A stretch of 19,611 bases of DNA from a virus. Lineage: Duplodnaviria; Heunggongvirae; Uroviricota; Caudoviricetes. The stretch covers positions 1 through 19,611 of the IMG/VR virus record IMGVR_UViG_2585427757_000001. One strand, written 5' to 3'. Position numbers and translations under genes: made by a program. Under the pieces are notes generated by a model, which was not told where the DNA came from, searched no databases, and saw nothing but the letters and a program-made list of their open reading frames with translations. Each line of letters begins with the position of its first letter. The stretch's first letter is position 1. Below, one piece after another: positions 6,899 through 15,740 of the stretch.

Positions 6899-7379
6899 TT
6901 TCAAACAACCGGAGGAGATGGAGTTTAACCGTGCCAGGCTCCGAAGGGCATTCGTTCAAATCGGGCGTGTCTATATGCGTGATGCCCGGCGGCTGGTGAT
7001 GCGACGTGGTCGGTCGGCACCGGGTGAAAACCCCGGCTATCAGACCGGACGACTTGCTCGTTCGATTGGTTACATGGTCCCCCGTAAAAGCTCCCGTCGT
7101 TCTGGCCTGATGGTCAGGATTTCCCCTAACCAGAAAAACGGGCAGGGAAACCGCCGTATCACCGGTGATTTTTATCCGGCTTTTTTGTTCTATGGCGTGA
7201 GGCGAGGGGCAAAGCGTCGTCGCAGCCATCATCGTGGTGCATCCGGTGGCAGCGGCTGGCGACTGGCTCCACGTAATAACTTCATGGTGGAAACGCTTGA
7301 AAAGAACCGCAGTTGGACACGCTATTTTCTGGCGCGGGAATTGCGTAAATCACTGAAGCCGGAGCGACGACACAGATGA
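6870..7379 (+). CDS. HK97 gp10-like head-tail joining protein (highly basic)
   Basis: Arg-rich protein containing QTGRLARSIGY, which resembles the gp10-family motif. The ORF is open from GTG 6843; GTG 6870 has the best SD (gggaggt 6858-6864) and ATG 6918 is another candidate, so the start is uncertain. Confidence 0.65.
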   Translation: MDQTAFLHVDFKQPEEMEFNRARLRRAFVQIGRVYMRDARRLVMRRGRSAPGENPGYQTGRLARSIGYMVPRKSSRRSGLMVRISPNQKNGQGNRRITGDFYPAFLFYGVRRGAKRRRSHHRGASGGSGWRLAPRNNFMVETLEKNRSWTRYFLARELRKSLKPERRHR

Positions 7380-7936
7380 AACTGACGCCTGTTATTGCTG
7401 CACTGCGTGCCCGCTGTCCGTATTTTGAAAACCGGGTTGCAGGCGCGGCCCAGTTTAAAAATCTGCCGGAGGTCGGAAAGCTGAAACTCCCGGCGGCATA
7501 TGTTGTACCGGGTGATGATTCTCCGGGAGAAAACAAAAGCCAGACCGACTACTGGCAGGAGCTGAAAGAGGGTTTCTCCGTGGTTGTCATACTGAGTAAC
7601 GGGCGTGATGAGCGCGGTCAGTTTGCCTCGTATGATGCGGTGGACGATGTTCGGCAAATGCTCTTTAAGGCCCTGCTGGGCTGGAATCCGGAAGCGTGCG
7701 GTAACCCGATTACCTATGACGGCGGCACGCTGCTGGATCTGAACCGTCATGAGCTGATTTATCAGTTCGATTTTTCGGTCATCAGCGAGCTGACCGAAGA
7801 CGATACCCGCCAGCAGGATGACCTGAACAGTCTGGATGAACTGCGAACGCTGGCGATTGATGTTGATTATCTCGATCCCGGTAACGGGCCTGACGGCGAT
7901 ATCGAACATCACACCGAAATAACCTTTCCTTCCTGA
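7376..7936 (+). CDS. Putative neck / tail-completion protein
   Basis: 186-aa ORF, start overlapping the upstream stop, located just before the sheath gene. Function is assigned by position only. Confidence 0.55.
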   Translation: MKLTPVIAALRARCPYFENRVAGAAQFKNLPEVGKLKLPAAYVVPGDDSPGENKSQTDYWQELKEGFSVVVILSNGRDERGQFASYDAVDDVRQMLFKALLGWNPEACGNPITYDGGTLLDLNRHELIYQFDFSVISELTEDDTRQQDDLNSLDELRTLAIDVDYLDPGNGPDGDIEHHTEITFPS

Positions 7937-7944
7937 GAATCATC

Positions 7945-8106
7945 ATGTTTGTAAAACCCCTGAAAGGGCGGTCAGTTCCTGACCCTGCCCGTGGAGACCT
8001 TTTGCCTTCTGACGGGCGAAATGTGGAAGAAAGCAGCTACTGGCTTCGCCGTATAGCGGCGTGTGATGTGGTACGTGTTAAACAGGATAAGGCTAAAGAA
8101 TCATGA
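7945..8106 (+). CDS. Possible small ORF (53 aa) upstream of the sheath gene, absent from the supplied ORF track
   Basis: ATG 7945 to TGA 8104-8106 (MFVKPLKGRSVPDPARGDLLPSDGRNVEESSYWLRRIAACDVVRVKQDKAKES). It fills an otherwise non-coding 166-bp gap in a tightly packed operon; the SD is weak. Confidence 0.3.
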   Translation: MFVKPLKGRSVPDPARGDLLPSDGRNVEESSYWLRRIAACDVVRVKQDKAKES

Positions 8107-9599
8107 CAATAAGTTTTAGTGCTGTTCCGTCGAATACGCTGGTGCCGTTGTTCTACGCCGAGATGGACAATTCTGCGGCAAATACTGCACAGGACAGCGG
8201 AGCATCGCTGCTGATTGGTCATGCCAATAACGGTGCAGAGATTGTTGCCAACAGTCTGGTACTGATGCCGTCGGCAGACTATGCACGCCAGATTTGTGGT
8301 GCGGGAAGTCAGCTGGCGCGTATGGTCGAGGCTTATCGCCAGACCGACCCGTTTGGTGAGCTGTATGTGATTGCCGTTCCTGAATCCACAGGCGCGGCGG
8401 CAACGGTTACGCTGACGGTGACCGGGGCGGCAACCGAAACCGGCACGGTGAATGTCTATGTGGGACGTACCCGCGTGCAGGCTCCGGTGACCAACGGCGA
8501 TAACGTCACGACGATTGCCAGCAGTATCAAAGATGCCATCAATGCCGTTCCGGCCCTGCCGTTTACGGCTTCATCTTCGGCAGGCGTGGTCACACTGACC
8601 GCGCGTCATAAGGGGCTTTGCGGGAATGAAATTCCTGTCAGCCTCAATTACTACGGCTTTGGTGGGGGCGAAGTGCTGCCAGCGGGCGTACAGATTGCCG
8701 TGGCGACGGGTACCGCCGGAACGGGTGCTCCGGTTCTCACCGGCGCGGTGGCTGCAATGGCGGATGAGCCGTTTGATTATATCGGACTGCCGTTCAACGA
8801 CACGGCCTCCGTTAACACGCTGGTGACCGAGATGAACGATACCAGCGGTCGCTGGAGCTATGCGCGTCAGCTGTATGGTCATGTGTATACGGCAAAGATC
8901 GGCACGCTGTCAGAACTGGTGACCGCAGGTGACCAGTTTAACCAGCAGCACATTACCCTGGCGGGGTACGAAAAAGAGACCCAGACGCCTGCCGACGAAC
9001 TGGCGGCAAGCCGTACCGCCCGCGCAGCGGTGTTTATTCGCAACGATCCGGCACGTCCCACGCAGACCGGTGAGCTGGTGGGTATGCTGCCTGCGCCGAA
9101 GGGGAAACGGTTCACGATGACCGAACAACAGACCCTGCTGTCTCATGGCGTGGCAACGGCGTATGTCGAAAGCGGGGTACTGCGCATTCAGCGTGATGTC
9201 ACCACGTACAGGAAAAACGCTTACGGGGTTGCGGATAACAGCTACCTAGACAGTGAGACTCTGCATACCAGCGCGTATGTACTGCGCAAACTGAAATCCG
9301 TCATTACCAGTAAGTACGGGCGTCACAAGCTTGCCAGTGACGGTACCCGCTTTGGTCCCGGTCAGGCGATTGTCACCCCGGCGGTGATCAAAGGGGAACT
9401 GCTGGCAACCTACCGTCAGCTTGAGCGTGCGGGGATCGTGGAAAACTACGCACTGTTTAAGCAGTACCTGGTTGTGGAGCGTGATGCCAGCGATCCGAAC
9501 CGCCTGAACACGCTGTTCCCGCCTGACTATGTTAACCAGTTGCGTGTCTTTGCCGTGGTTAACCAGTTCCGTCTTCAGTATTCAGAGGAGTCCGCATAA
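8103..9599 (+). CDS. Contractile tail sheath protein
   Basis: 498-aa ORF, immediately followed by a ~118-aa tube-like gene and a chaperone/tape-measure set; the order is typical of myovirus tails. Confidence 0.85.
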   Translation: MTISFSAVPSNTLVPLFYAEMDNSAANTAQDSGASLLIGHANNGAEIVANSLVLMPSADYARQICGAGSQLARMVEAYRQTDPFGELYVIAVPESTGAAATVTLTVTGAATETGTVNVYVGRTRVQAPVTNGDNVTTIASSIKDAINAVPALPFTASSSAGVVTLTARHKGLCGNEIPVSLNYYGFGGGEVLPAGVQIAVATGTAGTGAPVLTGAVAAMADEPFDYIGLPFNDTASVNTLVTEMNDTSGRWSYARQLYGHVYTAKIGTLSELVTAGDQFNQQHITLAGYEKETQTPADELAASRTARAAVFIRNDPARPTQTGELVGMLPAPKGKRFTMTEQQTLLSHGVATAYVESGVLRIQRDVTTYRKNAYGVADNSYLDSETLHTSAYVLRKLKSVITSKYGRHKLASDGTRFGPGQAIVTPAVIKGELLATYRQLERAGIVENYALFKQYLVVERDASDPNRLNTLFPPDYVNQLRVFAVVNQFRLQYSEESA

Positions 9600-9955
9600 T
9601 GGCCCGTATCGGGGGAACCTGTTATTTCAAAATTGACGGTCAGCAGCTATCGCTGACCGGCGGCATTGAGGTGCCCATGAACAGGACGGTCAATGATGAC
9701 ATCATCGGCCTGGACGGTTCAGTGGACCGCAAGGAAACTCACCGTGCGCCTTATGTCAAAGGGACCTTCAAGGTGCCGAAGAATTTTCCGGTGAGCAAAA
9801 TCACCTCGTCTGATGAGATGACCATCACTGCCGAGCTGGCGAACGGTCAGGTCTATGTACTGTCGTCTGCCTGGCTGCACGGCGAAGCGAACCATAATGC
9901 CGAAGAAGGCACGGTCGATCTTGAGTTCCACGGTGAAGAAGGGGATTACCAGTAA
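9599..9955 (+). CDS. Tail tube protein
   Basis: 118-aa ORF with strong SD ggaggag (9583-9589); start overlaps the sheath stop; canonical position after the sheath. Confidence 0.8.
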   Translation: MARIGGTCYFKIDGQQLSLTGGIEVPMNRTVNDDIIGLDGSVDRKETHRAPYVKGTFKVPKNFPVSKITSSDEMTITAELANGQVYVLSSAWLHGEANHNAEEGTVDLEFHGEEGDYQ

Positions 9956-10224
9956 TGAAAGAGCTTGAGTTAAAGAAACCGATTACCGCTCATGGCGAGA
10001 CACTCTCCGTACTGGAGTTTGATGAGCCCACCGGGAAAGATGTCCGCGAGCTGGGGTATCCCTACCAGATGAATCAGGATGAGTCCGTCAGACTTCTGGC
10101 GCATGTGGTGTCGAAATACATTGTGCGGCTGGCGAAAGTGCCGCAAAGCTCTGTCGACCAGATGTCTCCGGCAGACCTGAATGCAGCGGCGTGGCTTGTG
10201 GCTGGGTTTTTTCTCCAGGCCTGA
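9955..10224 (+). CDS. Tail assembly chaperone (G-like)
   Basis: 89-aa ORF between tube and tape measure; its 3' end overlaps a second ORF in the -1 frame. Confidence 0.7.
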   Translation: MKELELKKPITAHGETLSVLEFDEPTGKDVRELGYPYQMNQDESVRLLAHVVSKYIVRLAKVPQSSVDQMSPADLNAAAWLVAGFFLQA

Positions 10225-10373
10225 CGGCTGAATACCTCACTGATCGCTTCTTTGACTGCGCCAGCTACTGGCGCATTAATCCCTTCGAATTGCTGAATAT
10301 GCCGATCAGTGAAATTCCCTTGCTGGTCAGTCAGGCAAACAGGATAGAGCAGGAGAAACGCACACATGGCTGA
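10191..10373 (+). CDS. -1 frame extension of the tail assembly chaperone (GT-like fusion C-terminus)
   Basis: This ORF is in the -1 frame relative to 9955-10224, overlaps its last 34 nt, and ends 8 nt inside the tape measure gene. It has no convincing independent start (the track uses GTG). Confidence 0.55.
   Translation: MACGWVFSPGLTAEYLTDRFFDCASYWRINPFELLNMPISEIPLLVSQANRIEQEKRTHG
10204..10213 (+). promoter_or_regulatory. Candidate programmed -1 frameshift slip site (gggttttttc)
   Basis: A T6 run lies inside the overlap of the two chaperone frames. The zero-frame codons ggg ttt ttt can re-pair in the -1 frame (A-site ttt to ttt). Confidence 0.45.
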
Positions 10374-12198
10374 ATTTGAGCTTAAGGCGTTGATCACCGG
10401 TGTCGACAGGCTTTCTCCCGGGCTGTCGAAAATGCAAAAGAAAATCCGGGGATTTAAACGCCAGGCGGAAGAAGCGTCACAGGGTGGGCTGGCGCTTGGT
10501 GGAGGACTGGCAGCGGGGCTGACGCTTTCCCTGAAATCTTATGCCGATCAGGAAAACGCCGCTACCGGGCTGAAAGTCGCCATGATGGATGCGAACGGCG
10601 AGGTTGGAAAGAGCTTTCAGGACATCAATAAACTGGCTATTGGCCTGGGTAACCAGCTACCCGGTACAACGGCTGATTTCCAGAACATGATGCAGATGCT
10701 GGTGCGTCAGGGGATCCCGGCAGAAAACATTCTGGGTGGTGTGGGTAAAGCGACAGCTTATCTTGCGGTACAACTGAAAAAAACACCGGAAGCGGCTGCT
10801 GAGTTTGCTGCAAAGATGCAGGATGCTACCGGAACGGCGTCAGAAGACATGATGGGGCTGTTCGACACTATCCAGAAGGCGTTTTATCTGGGCGTTGACG
10901 ATACCAACATGTTGTCCTTCTTCACTAAAACCAGTTCTGTTCTGAAGATGGTGAACAAGGACGGTCTTCAGGCTGCACAGAGCCTTGCCCCCATCAGCGT
11001 CATGATGGATCAGATGGGGATGAACGGGGAGTCGGCAGGTAATGCCCTGCGAAAAGTTATCCAGTCCGGATTAAGTGTTAAGAAAATCAGGGACGTCAAT
11101 AAAGTCATGGCCCGCCAGAAACTCGGGGTACAGCTCGATTTTACTGACGGCAAAGGAAGTTTTGGCGGTCTTGATAACATGTTCAGGCAACTGGCAAAGT
11201 TGCGAAAACTGACCGACGTTAAGCGAACAGGCGTACTTAAGGCAATATTTGGTGATGATGCCGAAACCCTTCAGGTGGTCAATGCCCTGATCGATAAAGG
11301 AAAGGATGGCTACGATCAGATCCAGCAGAAGATGAATAAACAGGCCAGCCTGAATAAACGTGTTCAGGCTCAGCTTGGTACGCTGTCCAACCTGTGGGAG
11401 GCAATGACGGGGACCGCAACTAACGGTCTTGCAGCTATTGGCGGCGCATTTTCTGGTGACGCTAAAAATATCACGCAATGGCTGGGGGAGTTGGGGGAAA
11501 AATTCACGAAGTTTGCGGATGAAAATCCCCGGGTTATTCGCGGCGTCGTCGGGCTTGCTGCCGGTCTTGCGATTCTGAAACTGGGATTGATGGGCGTTGG
11601 CGGTGCCATCAGTATTGTCAGCAGGATCATGTCGATGACGCCGATTGGCATGATTGCGACGGCGATAGCCCTGGCTGCGGGATTAATTATCACTAACTGG
11701 GATGTTGTCGGACCTTATTTTAAGAAACTCTGGGAAACCATTGGTCCTTATTTTGAGGCTGGCTGGGAACTCCTTAAGAAAGTTTTTGCCTGGTCGCCGC
11801 TGGGGATGGTGATCAATAACTGGGGGCCGGTTGTTAAGTGGTTTCAGGATATGTGGGACAAGCTGAAGCCAATTATTGAGTGGTTTACCGACAGTTCCGG
11901 TGACACGGTCGATGCCATTAACTCTGCGCAGTGGGGCGCGGGTGCTTATGATGCTTATGGGACGGGAATACCGACGCGGGGATACACACCTTATCCGGCG
12001 GTGGATCCGGCTCAGTCAAACAACGCCTCCGATGCCACAGGCCCGAATCCCTTCATGATTAACAAAGCTATCGCGCCAAAAGTTGATGGCGAGATCAAGG
12101 TTTCATTTATGAATATGCCACCAGGTATGCGGGTTACGGAAACACGTTCCAGTGGCATTGATATTAATCACGATGTTGGGTACACCAGATTTAGGTAA
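10366..12198 (+). CDS. Tail tape measure protein
   Basis: 610-aa ORF with SD aggag (10351-10355). Long Ala/Gly/Leu-rich helical protein with a C-terminal hydrophobic segment and repeated W/GPYF motifs (GPYFKKLWETIGPYFEAGWELLKK...WGPVVKWFQDMWDKLK); position after the chaperone pair. Confidence 0.88.
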   Translation: MAEFELKALITGVDRLSPGLSKMQKKIRGFKRQAEEASQGGLALGGGLAAGLTLSLKSYADQENAATGLKVAMMDANGEVGKSFQDINKLAIGLGNQLPGTTADFQNMMQMLVRQGIPAENILGGVGKATAYLAVQLKKTPEAAAEFAAKMQDATGTASEDMMGLFDTIQKAFYLGVDDTNMLSFFTKTSSVLKMVNKDGLQAAQSLAPISVMMDQMGMNGESAGNALRKVIQSGLSVKKIRDVNKVMARQKLGVQLDFTDGKGSFGGLDNMFRQLAKLRKLTDVKRTGVLKAIFGDDAETLQVVNALIDKGKDGYDQIQQKMNKQASLNKRVQAQLGTLSNLWEAMTGTATNGLAAIGGAFSGDAKNITQWLGELGEKFTKFADENPRVIRGVVGLAAGLAILKLGLMGVGGAISIVSRIMSMTPIGMIATAIALAAGLIITNWDVVGPYFKKLWETIGPYFEAGWELLKKVFAWSPLGMVINNWGPVVKWFQDMWDKLKPIIEWFTDSSGDTVDAINSAQWGAGAYDAYGTGIPTRGYTPYPAVDPAQSNNASDATGPNPFMINKAIAPKVDGEIKVSFMNMPPGMRVTETRSSGIDINHDVGYTRFR

Positions 12199-12205
12199 AG
12201 ACGAA

Positions 12206-12227
12206 CAGGGAGGGCCGTCCCTCCCTG
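12206..12227. terminator. Perfect 9-bp GC-rich hairpin between convergent genes
   Basis: cagggaggg-ccgt-ccctccctg; it lies 8 nt after the tape measure stop and 3 nt after the antisense gene's stop. On the minus strand it is followed by ttcgtcttt. Confidence 0.5.
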
Positions 12228-12230
12228 AAC

Positions 12231-12677
12231 TTACTGTGCGAACACGCAATTTCGGCCTGATGGGGAGCCGACAATTCTGGACATTTTTTCGCAAATAACA
12301 GTTACTTGTTCTCCTTTTTTAAGAGCAGCAGCTGTTGATTTTTCAGAGTCTTGCATCTCCATTCTTGCTGGCATGAATTCATTTTCAGTTCTGAATTTAA
12401 TAATTATAGAGTCAGTAAAGTCCTTATCAATGGATTGTACGATACCTCTAACGGCGATTAATTTACCTTTTAACTGTTCATCGGTAGCGACTTCATTTTC
12501 TTCATACTCTTTAAACAGCTGTCGAGCAGTAGTGTTGTAGATTTCTTTTTGCGGTGCCGCAGCTTCCGTATCGGATGAGTATGAAGAATTAGAGCCTTTA
12601 TCGTTATTGCCTGCAAAATATCCAATAATCACCAACCCGATGAAAATATATAAAATCCATTTTAATAATTTCTTCAT
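12231..12677 (-). CDS. Membrane-anchored protein of unknown function with a putative OB-fold-like extracytoplasmic domain; antisense AT-rich moron
   Basis: 148-aa ORF on the opposite strand to the operon. Strong SD on the minus strand (aaggtga, 5 nt before ATG). N-terminal hydrophobic anchor (KKLLKWILYIFIGLVIIGYFAG) without a lipobox Cys, a Ser-rich linker, then a ~100-aa domain (KGKLIAVRGIVQSIDKDFTDSIIIKF...LKKGEQVTVICEK). The surrounding DNA is markedly AT-rich compared with the flanks. Confidence 0.7.
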   Translation of the reverse strand: MKKLLKWILYIFIGLVIIGYFAGNNDKGSNSSYSSDTEAAAPQKEIYNTTARQLFKEYEENEVATDEQLKGKLIAVRGIVQSIDKDFTDSIIIKFRTENEFMPARMEMQDSEKSTAAALKKGEQVTVICEKMSRIVGSPSGRNCVFAQ

Positions 12678-12739
12678 GTTATCACCTTAATGCTAATAAT
12701 TTATATAGTTACAAATGGTAATGGCTACCACTACAAATT

Positions 12740-14116
12740 ATGGCATTACCAGTAAATATTACTACTGATAATAAATATGGGACTTATATGACGTGGAAAG
12801 ACAGGCTTCAGGATGCGTCATTTCGCAGCGTGCCGTTTAAGGTTGAAGAAGAAAGTGCGGGAACCGGTCGCCGTGTGGAAACACATGAATACCCGAACCG
12901 CGACAAGCCCTATACCGAAGATCTGGGAAAAGTCACTTTCCGCCCGTCCATCACAGCTTATGTGGTGGGAGATGACTGCTTTGACCAGCGCGATCGCCTG
13001 ATTGAAGCGCTGAATAAACCCGGTCCCGGCACACTTGTCCACCCGACATATGGTGAGCTGAAAGTCTGTGTTGACGGGGAAGTTCGGGTCAGCACATCGA
13101 AAAGTGAAGGGCGTATTGTCCGCTTTGACCTGAAGTTTGTCGAAGCAGGAGAACTCTCTTACCCCACATCAGGTGCGGCGACGGCGCAGACGCTGATGTC
13201 ATCCTGTTCTGCACTGGATGACTGCATCAGTGACAGCTTCAGCGGTTTCAGTATCGATGGTGTGGCGGATTTCGTGCAGAACGACGTTATCGGTAATGCC
13301 AGCACAATGCTTGGGTATGTTTCTGATGCGATGAAAGTGGTGGATTCTGCCGTATCGGATGCCGCCAGGCTGTTGCAGGGGGATATCTCGGTACTTCTGC
13401 CGCCGCCATCCTCAGGCAAAAATTTCGTTGAGCAGGTGCAGAAAATGTGGCGTACCGGGAAACGCCTTTATGGTAACGCCAGCGACCTGGTCACCATGAT
13501 CAAAACGCTTTCCGGTGTCAGCCTCGGCAGCGATCTGCAACCGCGCGGCGTCTGGAAAACGGACAGTAAAACCACCGCCACGGCGACGCAGCAGCGTAAC
13601 GTGGTTGCCAGCACCCTTCGTACGACCGCAATCAGCGAAGCGGCGTATGCCGTCACCCGATTGCCTGCGCCAACAACTTCCGCGGTGATGCAGAATTCCG
13701 CAGTGGGGCAGGCAACAACACCCGCGCAGAGCACTGGCTGGCCTTCCGTCACGCATCCGGCACTGAACAATGCACCGGCGGTGAAAAACACGGTTGACCT
13801 GCCAACGTGGGAAGAACTGACCGACATTCGCGACACACTGAATACGGCAATTGATAAGGAGTTGTCCCGTACAACCAGTGATGCGCTGTTTCTGGCGCTG
13901 CGCCGGGTGAAAGCAGATCTGAATGCGGATATCAACACGCGCCTTGAACAGTCTGCACGGATCATTCAGCGCACACCGGATGAGGTTTTACCCGCGCTGG
14001 TGCTGGCGGCGACCTGGTTTGATAACGCGGCGCGTGACGCGGACATTATCCGGCGTAATGCCATTACGCATCCCGGCTTTGTGCCGGTGATCCCTCTGAA
14101 GGTGCCAGTGCAATGA
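12740..14116 (+). CDS. DNA circularization protein (Mu N-like)
   Basis: 458-aa ORF directly after the tape measure region, as in Mu-type tails. ATG 12740 lies in the AT-rich insert; the next in-frame ATG at 12788 (MTWKDRLQD...) is an alternative start. Confidence 0.8.
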   Translation: MALPVNITTDNKYGTYMTWKDRLQDASFRSVPFKVEEESAGTGRRVETHEYPNRDKPYTEDLGKVTFRPSITAYVVGDDCFDQRDRLIEALNKPGPGTLVHPTYGELKVCVDGEVRVSTSKSEGRIVRFDLKFVEAGELSYPTSGAATAQTLMSSCSALDDCISDSFSGFSIDGVADFVQNDVIGNASTMLGYVSDAMKVVDSAVSDAARLLQGDISVLLPPPSSGKNFVEQVQKMWRTGKRLYGNASDLVTMIKTLSGVSLGSDLQPRGVWKTDSKTTATATQQRNVVASTLRTTAISEAAYAVTRLPAPTTSAVMQNSAVGQATTPAQSTGWPSVTHPALNNAPAVKNTVDLPTWEELTDIRDTLNTAIDKELSRTTSDALFLALRRVKADLNADINTRLEQSARIIQRTPDEVLPALVLAATWFDNAARDADIIRRNAITHPGFVPVIPLKVPVQ

Positions 14117-15192
14117 ACGACAATGTCACGCTACGGGTAAATGGCCGGGAGTGGAATGGCTGGACATCGGTGCGCATCGGTGCCGGTATTGAACGGCTGG
14201 CGCGGGATTTCAGTGTGGAGATCACTCGCCAGTGGCCGGGAGATGAGGGTATCACCACGCTTCAGCCGCGCATTAAAAACGGTTCAAAAGTGGAAGTGCT
14301 GATTGGTGATGAGCTGGTGATCACCGGCTGGGTGGAGGCGACTCCCGTTCGTTACGATGCCCGTTCGGTCAGCACCGGTATTGCCGGACGTAGTCTGACG
14401 GCTGACCTGATTGACTGTGCAGCCGAACCGACACAGTTTAACGGACGCTCGCTGGTGCAGATTGCGCAGGCGCTTGCTGCGCCTTTCGGCATTGAGGTGG
14501 TGAACAGCGGTGCGCCATCGGGTGTTATTCCTGATGTTCAGCCTGATCACGGTGAAACGGTGATTGAGGTAATCAACAAAATACTCGGTCAGCAGCAGGC
14601 GCTGGCTTACGACGACCCGCACGGCAGGCTGGTGATTGGCGGTATTGGCTCAACGCGGGCACATACCGCGCTGGTACTTGGGGAAAACATCCTTTCCTGT
14701 GATACGGAGAAGAGTATCCGGGAGCGGTTTTCTGTTTACCAGGTGGCGGGGCAGCGTGCCGGAAACGACGATGATTTCGGTGAGGCCACCACCACCGCGC
14801 TGCGGGCCCGCACAGAGGACGCATTTATTGCCCGTTACCGTCCGATGTATATCAGGCAGACAGGGCAGGCCACGGGGGCAGGTTGTATTGCGCGTGCTGA
14901 CTTTGAAGCCCGACAACGGGCGGCGCGGACGGATGAAACCACCTATGTGGTGCAGGGCTGGCGACAGGGTAACGGTACGCTGTGGCAGCCCAACCAGCGG
15001 GTGATTGTCTTCGATCCGGTCTGTGGTTTCGACAATACCGAACTGCTTGTCTCGGAAGTCACGTTTACTCAGGACCAGAACGGCACCCTGACGGAAATCC
15101 GTGTCGGCCCACCTGATGCTTATCTGCCTGAACCCGAAGCCCCCGGCGCGCGGAAAAAGAAAAAAGCCAGAGTACAGGAGGACCCGTTCTGA
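14113..15192 (+). CDS. Baseplate hub / tail protein (Mu P-like)
   Basis: 359-aa ORF with start overlapping the upstream stop; its position between the N-like and spike-like genes matches the Mu baseplate order. Confidence 0.75.
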   Translation: MNDNVTLRVNGREWNGWTSVRIGAGIERLARDFSVEITRQWPGDEGITTLQPRIKNGSKVEVLIGDELVITGWVEATPVRYDARSVSTGIAGRSLTADLIDCAAEPTQFNGRSLVQIAQALAAPFGIEVVNSGAPSGVIPDVQPDHGETVIEVINKILGQQQALAYDDPHGRLVIGGIGSTRAHTALVLGENILSCDTEKSIRERFSVYQVAGQRAGNDDDFGEATTTALRARTEDAFIARYRPMYIRQTGQATGAGCIARADFEARQRAARTDETTYVVQGWRQGNGTLWQPNQRVIVFDPVCGFDNTELLVSEVTFTQDQNGTLTEIRVGPPDAYLPEPEAPGARKKKKARVQEDPF

Positions 15193-15740
15193 TGAGGACG
15201 ATTGAAGCCATGCAGCGACAACTTCTCGGCCTGATTGGGCGGGCAGTGGTGAAAAGCATCAGTGCCGCCACGAAATGTCAGACTGTGGATGTGTCCCTGA
15301 TTGCCGGTGAACCCAAAGCCGGGGTTGAACATCTTGAACCCTACGGTTTTACCGCAAGGGCAAACAGCGGTGCGGAAGCGGTGGTGTTGTTTCCGGATGG
15401 CGACCGTTCTCATGCGGTGGTTGTTACGGTGTCGGACCGGCGCTACCGCCTGAAAGGGCTGCAGACGGGTGAGGTGGCTGTCTATGACGATCAGGGGCAG
15501 TCTGTGACGCTGACCCGGGAGGGGATCGTGGTGGACGGTGCAGGTAAAACGATCACGTTTCGCAATGCGCCCAGAGCACGTTTTGAAATGGACCTGGAAG
15601 TGACCGGACAGGTGAAAGACCTGTGCGACTCCGGCGGTACCACCATGTCAGCGATGCGGCTTGCCTATAACGGGCATCGTCACAGAGAGAACGGTCAGGG
15701 CAGTAACACCGACAAACCTGATAAAGCGATGGAGGCATGA
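15192..15740 (+). CDS. Baseplate assembly / spike protein (gpV-like)
   Basis: 182-aa ORF with SD ggagga (15177-15182); size and position typical of gpV-type baseplate spike proteins. Confidence 0.75.
   Translation: MRTIEAMQRQLLGLIGRAVVKSISAATKCQTVDVSLIAGEPKAGVEHLEPYGFTARANSGAEAVVLFPDGDRSHAVVVTVSDRRYRLKGLQTGEVAVYDDQGQSVTLTREGIVVDGAGKTITFRNAPRARFEMDLEVTGQVKDLCDSGGTTMSAMRLAYNGHRHRENGQGSNTDKPDKAMEA

Follow-up and report, generated by a model that had tools for sequence, protein, structure and literature searches.

The closest described counterpart of the locus examined here is the E/E+E′ gene pair of phage P2, in which Christie et al. are said to have described, in 2002, a −1 frameshift at the heptamer T_TTT_TTG. 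The frequency of this frameshift is about 10%. The −1 frameshift is annotated in the P2 record (NC_001895) at GTC GGT TTT TTG, where T_TTT_TTG stands in phase. No downstream stimulatory hairpin has been reported for P2-like phages (PMC3091744), and in the relatives of SfV type we likewise found no conserved RNA structure just downstream of the run.

The G/G-T pair of phage lambda occupies the same gene position and follows the same logic, with two proteins that share an N-terminus and are made in a ratio set by low-level −1 slippage. The lambda shift reportedly takes place at G_GGA_AAG, in work attributed to Levin, Hendrix and Casjens (1993) and to Xu, Hendrix and Duda (2004, 2013 and 2014). 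In lambda the tape measure protein is the partner of G, and of GT through its G part, while T has the major tail subunit as its partner; the ratio is about 30:1 and neither protein is found in the virion (PMC5009743). Phage Mu is the closest system in tail architecture (sheath L, tube M, DUF2635 and a DNA circulation protein), and its chaperone falls within PF10109 ('E, or 41 or 14'). In Mu a 144-nt gap precedes the tape measure gene, the frame that is open across this gap is +1/−2, with the run CGG GGG CGA, and the frameshift is −2 (PMC5009743, PMC2628397). Outside tail genes, the same tandem-slippage rule, X_XXY_YYZ, governs IS3/IS911 and dnaX, and U_UUU_UUC occurs among the frameshift motifs of insertion sequences; these systems, however, need an upstream Shine-Dalgarno-like element and/or a downstream hairpin or pseudoknot, none of which is conserved in the SfV-type loci.

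Gene neighbourhood and overlapping frames of the chaperone cassette

The window, by which we mean the whole 19,611-bp stretch of DNA that was analysed, is identical to the entire contig JOQW01000055.1 of NCBI assembly GCA_000714295.1. It is a prophage contig carrying the late region of an SfV-like temperate myophage with a Mu-type tail. The 802 bases around the chaperone cassette are 98-99% identical at the DNA level to Shigella phages SfV, SfI and SfII and likewise to Escherichia phage vB_EcoM-689R6, and matching DNA is present in 1,086 of 5,426 complete E. coli genomes. A sequence-only reading of the window had proposed a programmed −1 ribosomal frameshift in the tail assembly chaperone, at a T6 run in the overlap between two ORFs. 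The features that bear on this proposal are as follows.

8103-9599, tail sheath gene (Pfam)
9599..9955, plus strand, tail tube gene, 118 aa (PF10618 Tail_tube, 2.4e-33; so annotated in SfV-like phages and RefSeq E. coli)
9955..10224, plus strand, chaperone gene 'G', 89 aa, counterpart of P2 gpE (PF10109 Phage_TAC_7)
10191..10193, plus strand, GTG taken by ORF finders as the start of a free 60-aa ORF
10206..10212, plus strand, putative shift site, G_TTT_TTT in the window, with the T6 run at 10207-10212
10212..10373, plus strand, predicted −1-frame extension 'T' of 53 codons, SPGLTAEY...EKRTHG, ending in TGA at 10371-10373
10351..10355, plus strand, AGGAG, putative Shine-Dalgarno sequence of the tape measure gene, read off the sequence
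10366..12198, plus strand, tape measure gene, 610 aa (PF10145, 1e-26)
12740-14116, DNA circulation protein gene (Pfam)

Two overlapping ORFs lie directly between the tube and tape measure genes, the gene order of a G/GT cassette. The tube gene forms the upstream boundary, its stop overlapping the chaperone ATG as TAATG. At the other end the start of the tape measure gene overlaps the stop of T as ATGGCTGA, an arrangement that is retained in most relatives, and the putative Shine-Dalgarno AGGAG sits within the T segment, 10 nt upstream of the tape measure ATG at 10366. The chaperone matches PF10109 Phage_TAC_7 over residues 4-86 with 60.3 bits (gathering cut-off 25; 1.9e-16), and it also matches the tail protein family phrog_166 (1.5e-23). 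Further downstream, between the tape measure and DNA-circulation genes, the minus strand carries a 148-aa ORF (12231-12677) with a match to PF12869, tRNA_anti-like, an OB fold (2.9e-19); its placement in the tail operon is of the moron type, and it is also present in contigs with an identical tape measure protein.

In the zero frame the chaperone gene ends ...GCT GGG TTT TTT CTC CAG GCC TGA, with its stop at 10222-10224. The second ORF, as listed from its GTG, runs from 10191 to 10373, encodes 60 aa and is in the −1 frame relative to the first. The overlap of 34 nt given by the sequence-only reading is correct in its coordinates but understates the extent to which two frames are available, since the −1 frame is open already from 10083 and overlaps the chaperone gene by 142 nt. 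From there it runs open to the TGA at 10371-10373, at the start codon of the tape measure gene. Stops at 10229, 10241 and 10253 close the +1 frame, so that the window, unlike Mu, would use −1, and its extension does not lie in a +1/−2 frame. The element gggttttttc, which had been placed within the overlap, is located at 10204-10213, and a tetramer, T_TTT at 10209-10212, is the sole shift-prone motif that the overlap contains in phase. The predicted fusion, join(9955..10212, 10212..10373), computes to 139 aa (...LVAGFF|SPGLTAEY...EKRTHG), in agreement with the roughly 140 aa that had been forecast. Its predicted junction peptide is VPQSSVDQMSPADLNAAAWLVAGFF[P/S]PGLTAEYLTDR, and the junction may also be written ...LVAGFFPPGLTAEYLTDR. 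A T6 run is expected by chance 0.043 times in a 142-nt overlap, and in-phase heptamers are found about once per kb in the genes of the window. By itself the window is no more than suggestive and leaves chance open; the significance of the run rests on comparative data.

Coding in the −1 frame beyond the T-run

For this comparison we used six phages that differ in their chaperone and tape-measure modules (EPP-1, AH07, SfIV, phiP27, ST64B and YeP1) together with 25 loci from one-genome-per-species contigs, giving a total of 29 unique sequences including the window. Of two scans for related loci, that of genome contigs supplied useful diversity and that of viral contigs 100%-identical copies only. 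We observed that the −1 frame is open from the T-run onward in all 29 unique loci, and that in nearly all of them it ends 7-10 nt inside the tape measure gene. The T peptide carries a motif, ...A.[YF]W[RK].[NP]P....L......A.RI..., that is conserved among the relatives. Searches with tblastn recovered the peptide in 18 phage records at identities down to 40%; overall its conservation extends down to 35-40% identity, it is also conserved across 24 genomes, and the T part matches phrog_32181 (4e-40). An alignment of 16 conceptual fusions shows residues without any variation to either side of the junction, those in the T part being A103, P110, A128 and R130. Both the arrangement and the extension peptide are therefore conserved among related phages. 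The −1 translation upstream of the T-run is unconserved, and conservation of the peptide starts exactly at the T-run and not at the GTG.

The distribution of nucleotide diversity in an ungapped alignment of 13 relatives leads in the same direction. Upstream of the run diversity is concentrated at the third position of the zero frame (0.462 vs 0.141 and 0.093 at the other two), while in the gap between the chaperone and tape measure genes it is concentrated at the third position of the −1 frame (0.374 vs 0.185 and 0.108). Given that the peak moves to the −1 third position, the gap codes for protein in the −1 frame under purifying selection.

How this segment is reached by ribosomes can be judged from the start codons that are available to it. 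Up to and including the run, the −1 frame contains an ATG, GTG or TTG in only 9 of the 29 loci, and in none of these nine is it preceded by a Shine-Dalgarno sequence; where present, the upstream start codon is always a by-product of the conserved tryptophan codon of G. In six relatives the entire −1 ORF is devoid of any start codon. No Shine-Dalgarno motif was found upstream of GTG 10191 in the window. On these grounds the GTG is not credible as an initiation site, as the sequence-only reading had held, and independent initiation is not, from the comparison, the conserved route to the T segment. That the −1 ORF is nevertheless an independent small gene (60 aa from GTG 10191), or that the 141-nt gap is non-coding, we regard as extremely unlikely. 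The 60-aa ORF is indeed produced by gene callers in the source assembly and in vB_EcoM-689R6, PHROG 32181 gathers such ORFs, and RefSeq PGAP annotates nothing in the gap; the scarcity of start codons, the onset of peptide conservation at the T-run, and the coding periodicity and purifying selection in the −1 frame all stand against these two views. The comparative pattern shows that translation reaches the −1 segment only in continuation of the chaperone. We also tried termination-reinitiation at the stop codon of G and rejected it, there being no start codon at that place (the CTG of the window is CTA in EPP-1).

The cassette can be compared directly with P2 E/E+E′, which belongs to the same family, PF10109, and has the same place, flanked by FII (tube) and T (tape measure). 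The short and long products measure 91 and 142 aa in P2, those of the window 89 and 139 aa. Aligned by hhalign with P2 E+E′, a profile of the 16 fusion sequences gave a probability of 81% and an E-value of 1.2e-5 over 119 columns spanning G and T, with VAGFF placed on VVGFL of P2; the score is moderate and the identity about 22%. In both phages the run codes for the Gly-Phe motif, homologous between them, close to the C-terminus of the shorter product, and in both the extension ends a few nucleotides inside the tape measure gene. An end-to-end alignment in which the shift falls at homologous codons identifies the cassette in the window as a homologue of the proven P2 case. The two differ in that the tail module of the window is of Mu/SfV type and that of P2 is of P2 type, and in that the SfV-type shift is predicted from sequence. 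The heptamers also differ: P2 uses T_TTT_TTG, the SfV-type family T_TTT_TTC or T_TTT_TTT, and the window has G_TTT_TTT. Lambda, with which we detected no sequence similarity, differs further in its siphovirus tail, its heptamer and the tRNAs involved. Sequence searches of PDB, Pfam and NCBIfam with the T part or the fusion returned nothing except PF10109, and the T part alone matches no Pfam or NCBIfam model.

The Pfam identities of the neighbouring genes, the relatives and the homology with P2 E+E′ together bear out the conserved G/GT arrangement that had been recognised between tube and tape measure. It is therefore very probable, in our view, that the cassette is the tail-assembly-chaperone frameshift of an SfV-like myophage, homologous to P2 E/E′ and analogous to lambda G/GT. 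The comparisons support a G/GT-type chaperone frameshift that is real and conserved in the family to which the window belongs. Its mechanism is already known: it is the textbook G/GT route to two tail chaperones at a fixed ratio and involves no new principle. What this contig adds beyond the known mechanism is a shift in the register of its T-run, and its shift site should be read with caution.

Phase of the T-run in the family and in the window

Phe85 and Phe86 of the chaperone are invariant in the relatives, and in all 28 of the other unique sequences the shift site reads NNT TTT TTC or NNT TTT TTT, that is, an in-phase T_TTT_TTY, with a run length of T6-T7. Where the residue before the run is glycine, its codon in these 28 sequences is always GGT, whereas all four synonyms are used for the adjacent alanine codon. 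From the fixed phase of the run beside a variable alanine codon, we conclude that the shift site is, on this comparative evidence, under selection. The fixed phase also favours tandem slippage of tRNA-Phe in the ribosomal P and A sites over slippage of the polymerase, which would tolerate GGV TTT TTT equally well; GGV TTT TTT is absent from the 28 other unique sequences.

Transcriptional slippage, in which RNA polymerase would add one U on T6 or T7 and normal translation would then yield G-T, seems to us very unlikely. In its favour, what all relatives conserve is a homopolymer, T6 or T7; the window keeps its T6 in spite of the shifted phase, which would be of little matter to a polymerase; and E. 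coli genes contain UUUUUUU less often than expected in each of the three phases, which transcriptional slippage may explain (PMC4066793). Only the ribosome reads phase, however, and the T_TTT_TTY phase is kept in 28 of 28 sequences. In addition, the documented bacterial runs are of about 9 A or T (PMC5009743), as in Thermus dnaX and Shigella mxiE, against T6 in the window and T6-T7 in the relatives, and the P2 record gives the homologous site as a frameshift in translation.

An in-phase X_XXY_YYZ within the overlap is thus present in every other unique relative and missing from the window, where the phase is G_TTT_TTT (GCT GGG TTT TTT CTC), one base out of register. The sequence of the run in the window is GGGTTTTTTCTCC; the variant may also be given as GGGTTTTTTC, its canonical counterpart being GGTTTTTTCC. 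The difference amounts to GG-T6-CC becoming GGG-T6-C, i.e. one G gained and one C lost on the flanks of T6, and it is synonymous in G. Thus the −1 frameshift at T6 proposed by the sequence-only reading is upheld for the family, by the run, the coding in the −1 frame and the homology with P2, and requires qualification for this copy, whose T6, being one base out of phase, is either mis-sequenced or a weakened site.

The variant is confined to the window in every collection that we searched. Compared with E. coli Santai (L001), the sole differences over 9254-10421 are at 10206 (G for T) and 10212 (T for C). Among 91 close copies, 88 have GGT TTT TTC, two have GGG TTT TTC (L060 and L066) and one is the window variant. 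None of the 973 places searched in 901 complete genomes of E. coli had it, the closest being 97.8% identical (two mismatches in 91 nt). Nor did it turn up in IMG/VR, where 118 of 119 matches to the pattern are canonical, or in metagenome contigs. Anchoring on the downstream motif gave 240 instances of the locus and 74 unique haplotypes, all of them canonical except for the contig of the window itself and the two copies with GGG TTT TTC. With L194 added, three contigs besides the window have GGG TTT TTC, in which a G takes the X position. Contigs with an identical tape measure protein are decisive: over 8181-15198 two Logan assemblies (L237 and L241) match the window at every position but 10206 and 10212, an ENA assembly (L238) differs additionally at 8529 and 8531, and all three read GGTTTTTTCC.

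The draft assembly GCA_000700445.1 shares both of its SfV-like prophages with GCA_000714295.1, and the two appear to be near-clonal strains from one project. At the locus (JNMR01000055.1, 2589-3008; L239) this sister draft reads GGGTTTTTTCC, i.e. GGG-T6-CC, one base too many, in the context GCTGGGTTTTTTCC. G and T are there called as one ORF of 139 aa, identical to the predicted frameshift product and a singleton among the copies examined; if this sequence were real, that prophage would make G-T only and no free G. Window positions 7574-8185 are identical to JNMR01000090.1 and positions 8181-15198, except for the run, to JNMR01000055.1, which also matches the flanks of the first stretch, so that the window is a mosaic of these two prophage contigs. 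The JNMR01000090.1-like patch of about 600 bp comprises the end of the tail terminator gene, the DUF2635 gene and the start of the sheath gene, and reflects either recombination between co-resident prophages or a chimeric assembly.

That a single homopolymer junction has two different lengths in the sister assemblies, each of them seen nowhere else, suggests a technical artefact. We therefore think it probable that G_TTT_TTT is a one-base register error of the draft assembly and that the real phage has T_TTT_TTC. The database proteins that cover both G and T (P0001-P0006) are without exception singletons from Logan and ENA assemblies that contain several homopolymer indels (for example AGFSSSLTAEY... 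and RFDCASY). We rejected these as natural fusions because they derive from singleton, indel-ridden assemblies; they indicate that the T-run region is often mis-assembled in public data.

The alternative, that G_TTT_TTT is real, is possible but doubtful. The window would then be a rare mutant, possibly arising by insertion of a G offset by deletion of a C 7 nt downstream, and its cassette would remain functional by single-tRNA slippage on the in-phase U_UUU, the tRNA-Phe on 10210-10212 re-pairing on 10209-11, after which UCU would be read. Several observations speak for it and against an artefact: 24 other homopolymers of at least 5 nt in the same 7 kb are error-free, every phage ORF in the window is intact, a putative intermediate with the added G only, in which G and T are fused in frame, exists in the sister assembly, GGG TTT TTC occurs in the three contigs mentioned above, and U_UUU and U_UUC belong to the small set of tetramers on which E. 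coli ribosomes shift, at 0.8-1.8% with a pseudoknot (PMC4066793). On the other side, the variant occurs just once in more than 1,200 copies; without selection, a pair of changes only 7 nt apart is very unlikely in 7 kb of DNA that is otherwise identical; the apparent sister strains with their shared prophages leave little time for compensatory evolution; and tetramers are about ten-fold weaker than heptamers and at background level without a stimulator. A site that is not only genuine but functional, in which a +1 insertion fused G and T and a −1 deletion 7 nt downstream then restored G, we consider unlikely. Such a site would be a G/GT cassette working off an out-of-phase run, by single-tRNA or polymerase slippage; it would illustrate how a recoding site can undergo compensatory evolution in nature, and phase would be less essential than its strict conservation suggests. 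We stress that recoding sites sit on homopolymers, where draft assemblies err, and that calls from a single record should be checked against relatives.

Predicted slippage, stimulators and annotation

In the mechanism that we propose, most ribosomes would translate 9955-10224 and release the 89-aa chaperone, while a minority would slip back by one nucleotide on the U-run encoding Phe85-Phe86 and continue in the −1 frame to 10373, yielding the 139-aa G-T fusion. At the family shift site, T_TTT_TTC or T_TTT_TTT, tRNA-Phe could re-pair in both the P and the A site. By analogy with lambda, the shared N-terminal domain would bind the tape measure protein and the T extension would recruit the tube subunit, frameshifting supplying a fixed, low G-T:G ratio. 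Should the sequence of the window be real, the tetramer U_UUU (10209-10212) would be the one place for cognate re-pairing: with GUU opposite the tRNA-Phe in the P site, perfect re-pairing would be left to the second tRNA-Phe, and the product would read ...AGFF|SPGL.... The output of G-T would then probably be several-fold to about ten-fold lower. A tandem slip on GGG_TTT was considered and rejected, as both tRNAs would mis-pair.

Reporter measurements in E. coli are available for the motifs concerned (Sharma et al. 2014, PMC4066793, Tables S2/S3). U_UUU_UUC gave 0.12% without a stimulator, 0.89% with the IS911 stimulators and 7.6% with the IS3 pseudoknot; the corresponding values for U_UUU_UUU were 0.33%, 0.45% and 10.2%. 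The tetramer U_UUU gave 0.14% without a stimulator and 0.80% with the IS3 pseudoknot, and was not tested with IS911 elements. The stimulator-free values of U_UUU_UUC and U_UUU are near background (PMC4066793).

We searched the locus for stimulators of this kind. Folds of the single sequence were not significant (z −1.9 for 10213-10300, z −0.8 for 10150-10380), and RNAalifold, applied to 15 group-1 and 7 group-2 relatives, revealed no conserved structure within about 45 nt of the run. The sole consensus helix is a perfect 8-bp hairpin at 10257-10275, TGCGCCAG-cta-CTGGCGCA, located inside T, 45 nt downstream of the run. It is present in 13 of the 15 group-1 relatives, with changes in the loop only and without covariation, and is broken in the two most divergent members of the group. 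We rejected it as a stimulator, given its distance, the lack of covariation and its disruption in these two members, and the conserved peptide DCASYWRI alone could explain it. By eye, no Shine-Dalgarno-like stimulator was seen upstream, in 10185-10205. The 10 nt downstream of the run thus showed no conserved stimulatory structure, and by the reporter data the heptamer acts weakly on its own; both points count against the proposed mechanism.

We found no experiment in the literature on the chaperone frameshift of an SfV-type phage and no publication that cites the source accessions, and an annotation of slippage is absent from all public records that we examined. The T segment is left as a gap of 84-141 nt in SfV, SfI, SfII, SfIV, phiP27, ST64B, EPP-1, AH07 and RefSeq E. 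coli (10225-10365, 141 nt, in the window), and the fusion is likewise unannotated in the YeP1 record. In vB_EcoM-689R6 and in the source assembly of the window, T is called as a free hypothetical ORF of 60 aa. PHROG 32181, a profile of 63 positions listed under 'unknown function', is, by its match to this segment, the mis-called T. The practical value of the present analysis lies in annotation, since about 1,000 of the 5,426 complete genomes of E. coli contain a member of the SfV-type family.

Elsewhere in the window we noted two further heptamers that stand in phase. One is A_AAA_AAG at 1201-1207, inside the gene for the terminase large subunit (902-2632); A_AAA_AAG is the most shift-prone heptamer in E. 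coli. The other is T_TTT_TTG at 7181, within the gene at 6918-7379. Both are probably incidental, because in-phase heptamers occur about once per kb across the genes of the window.
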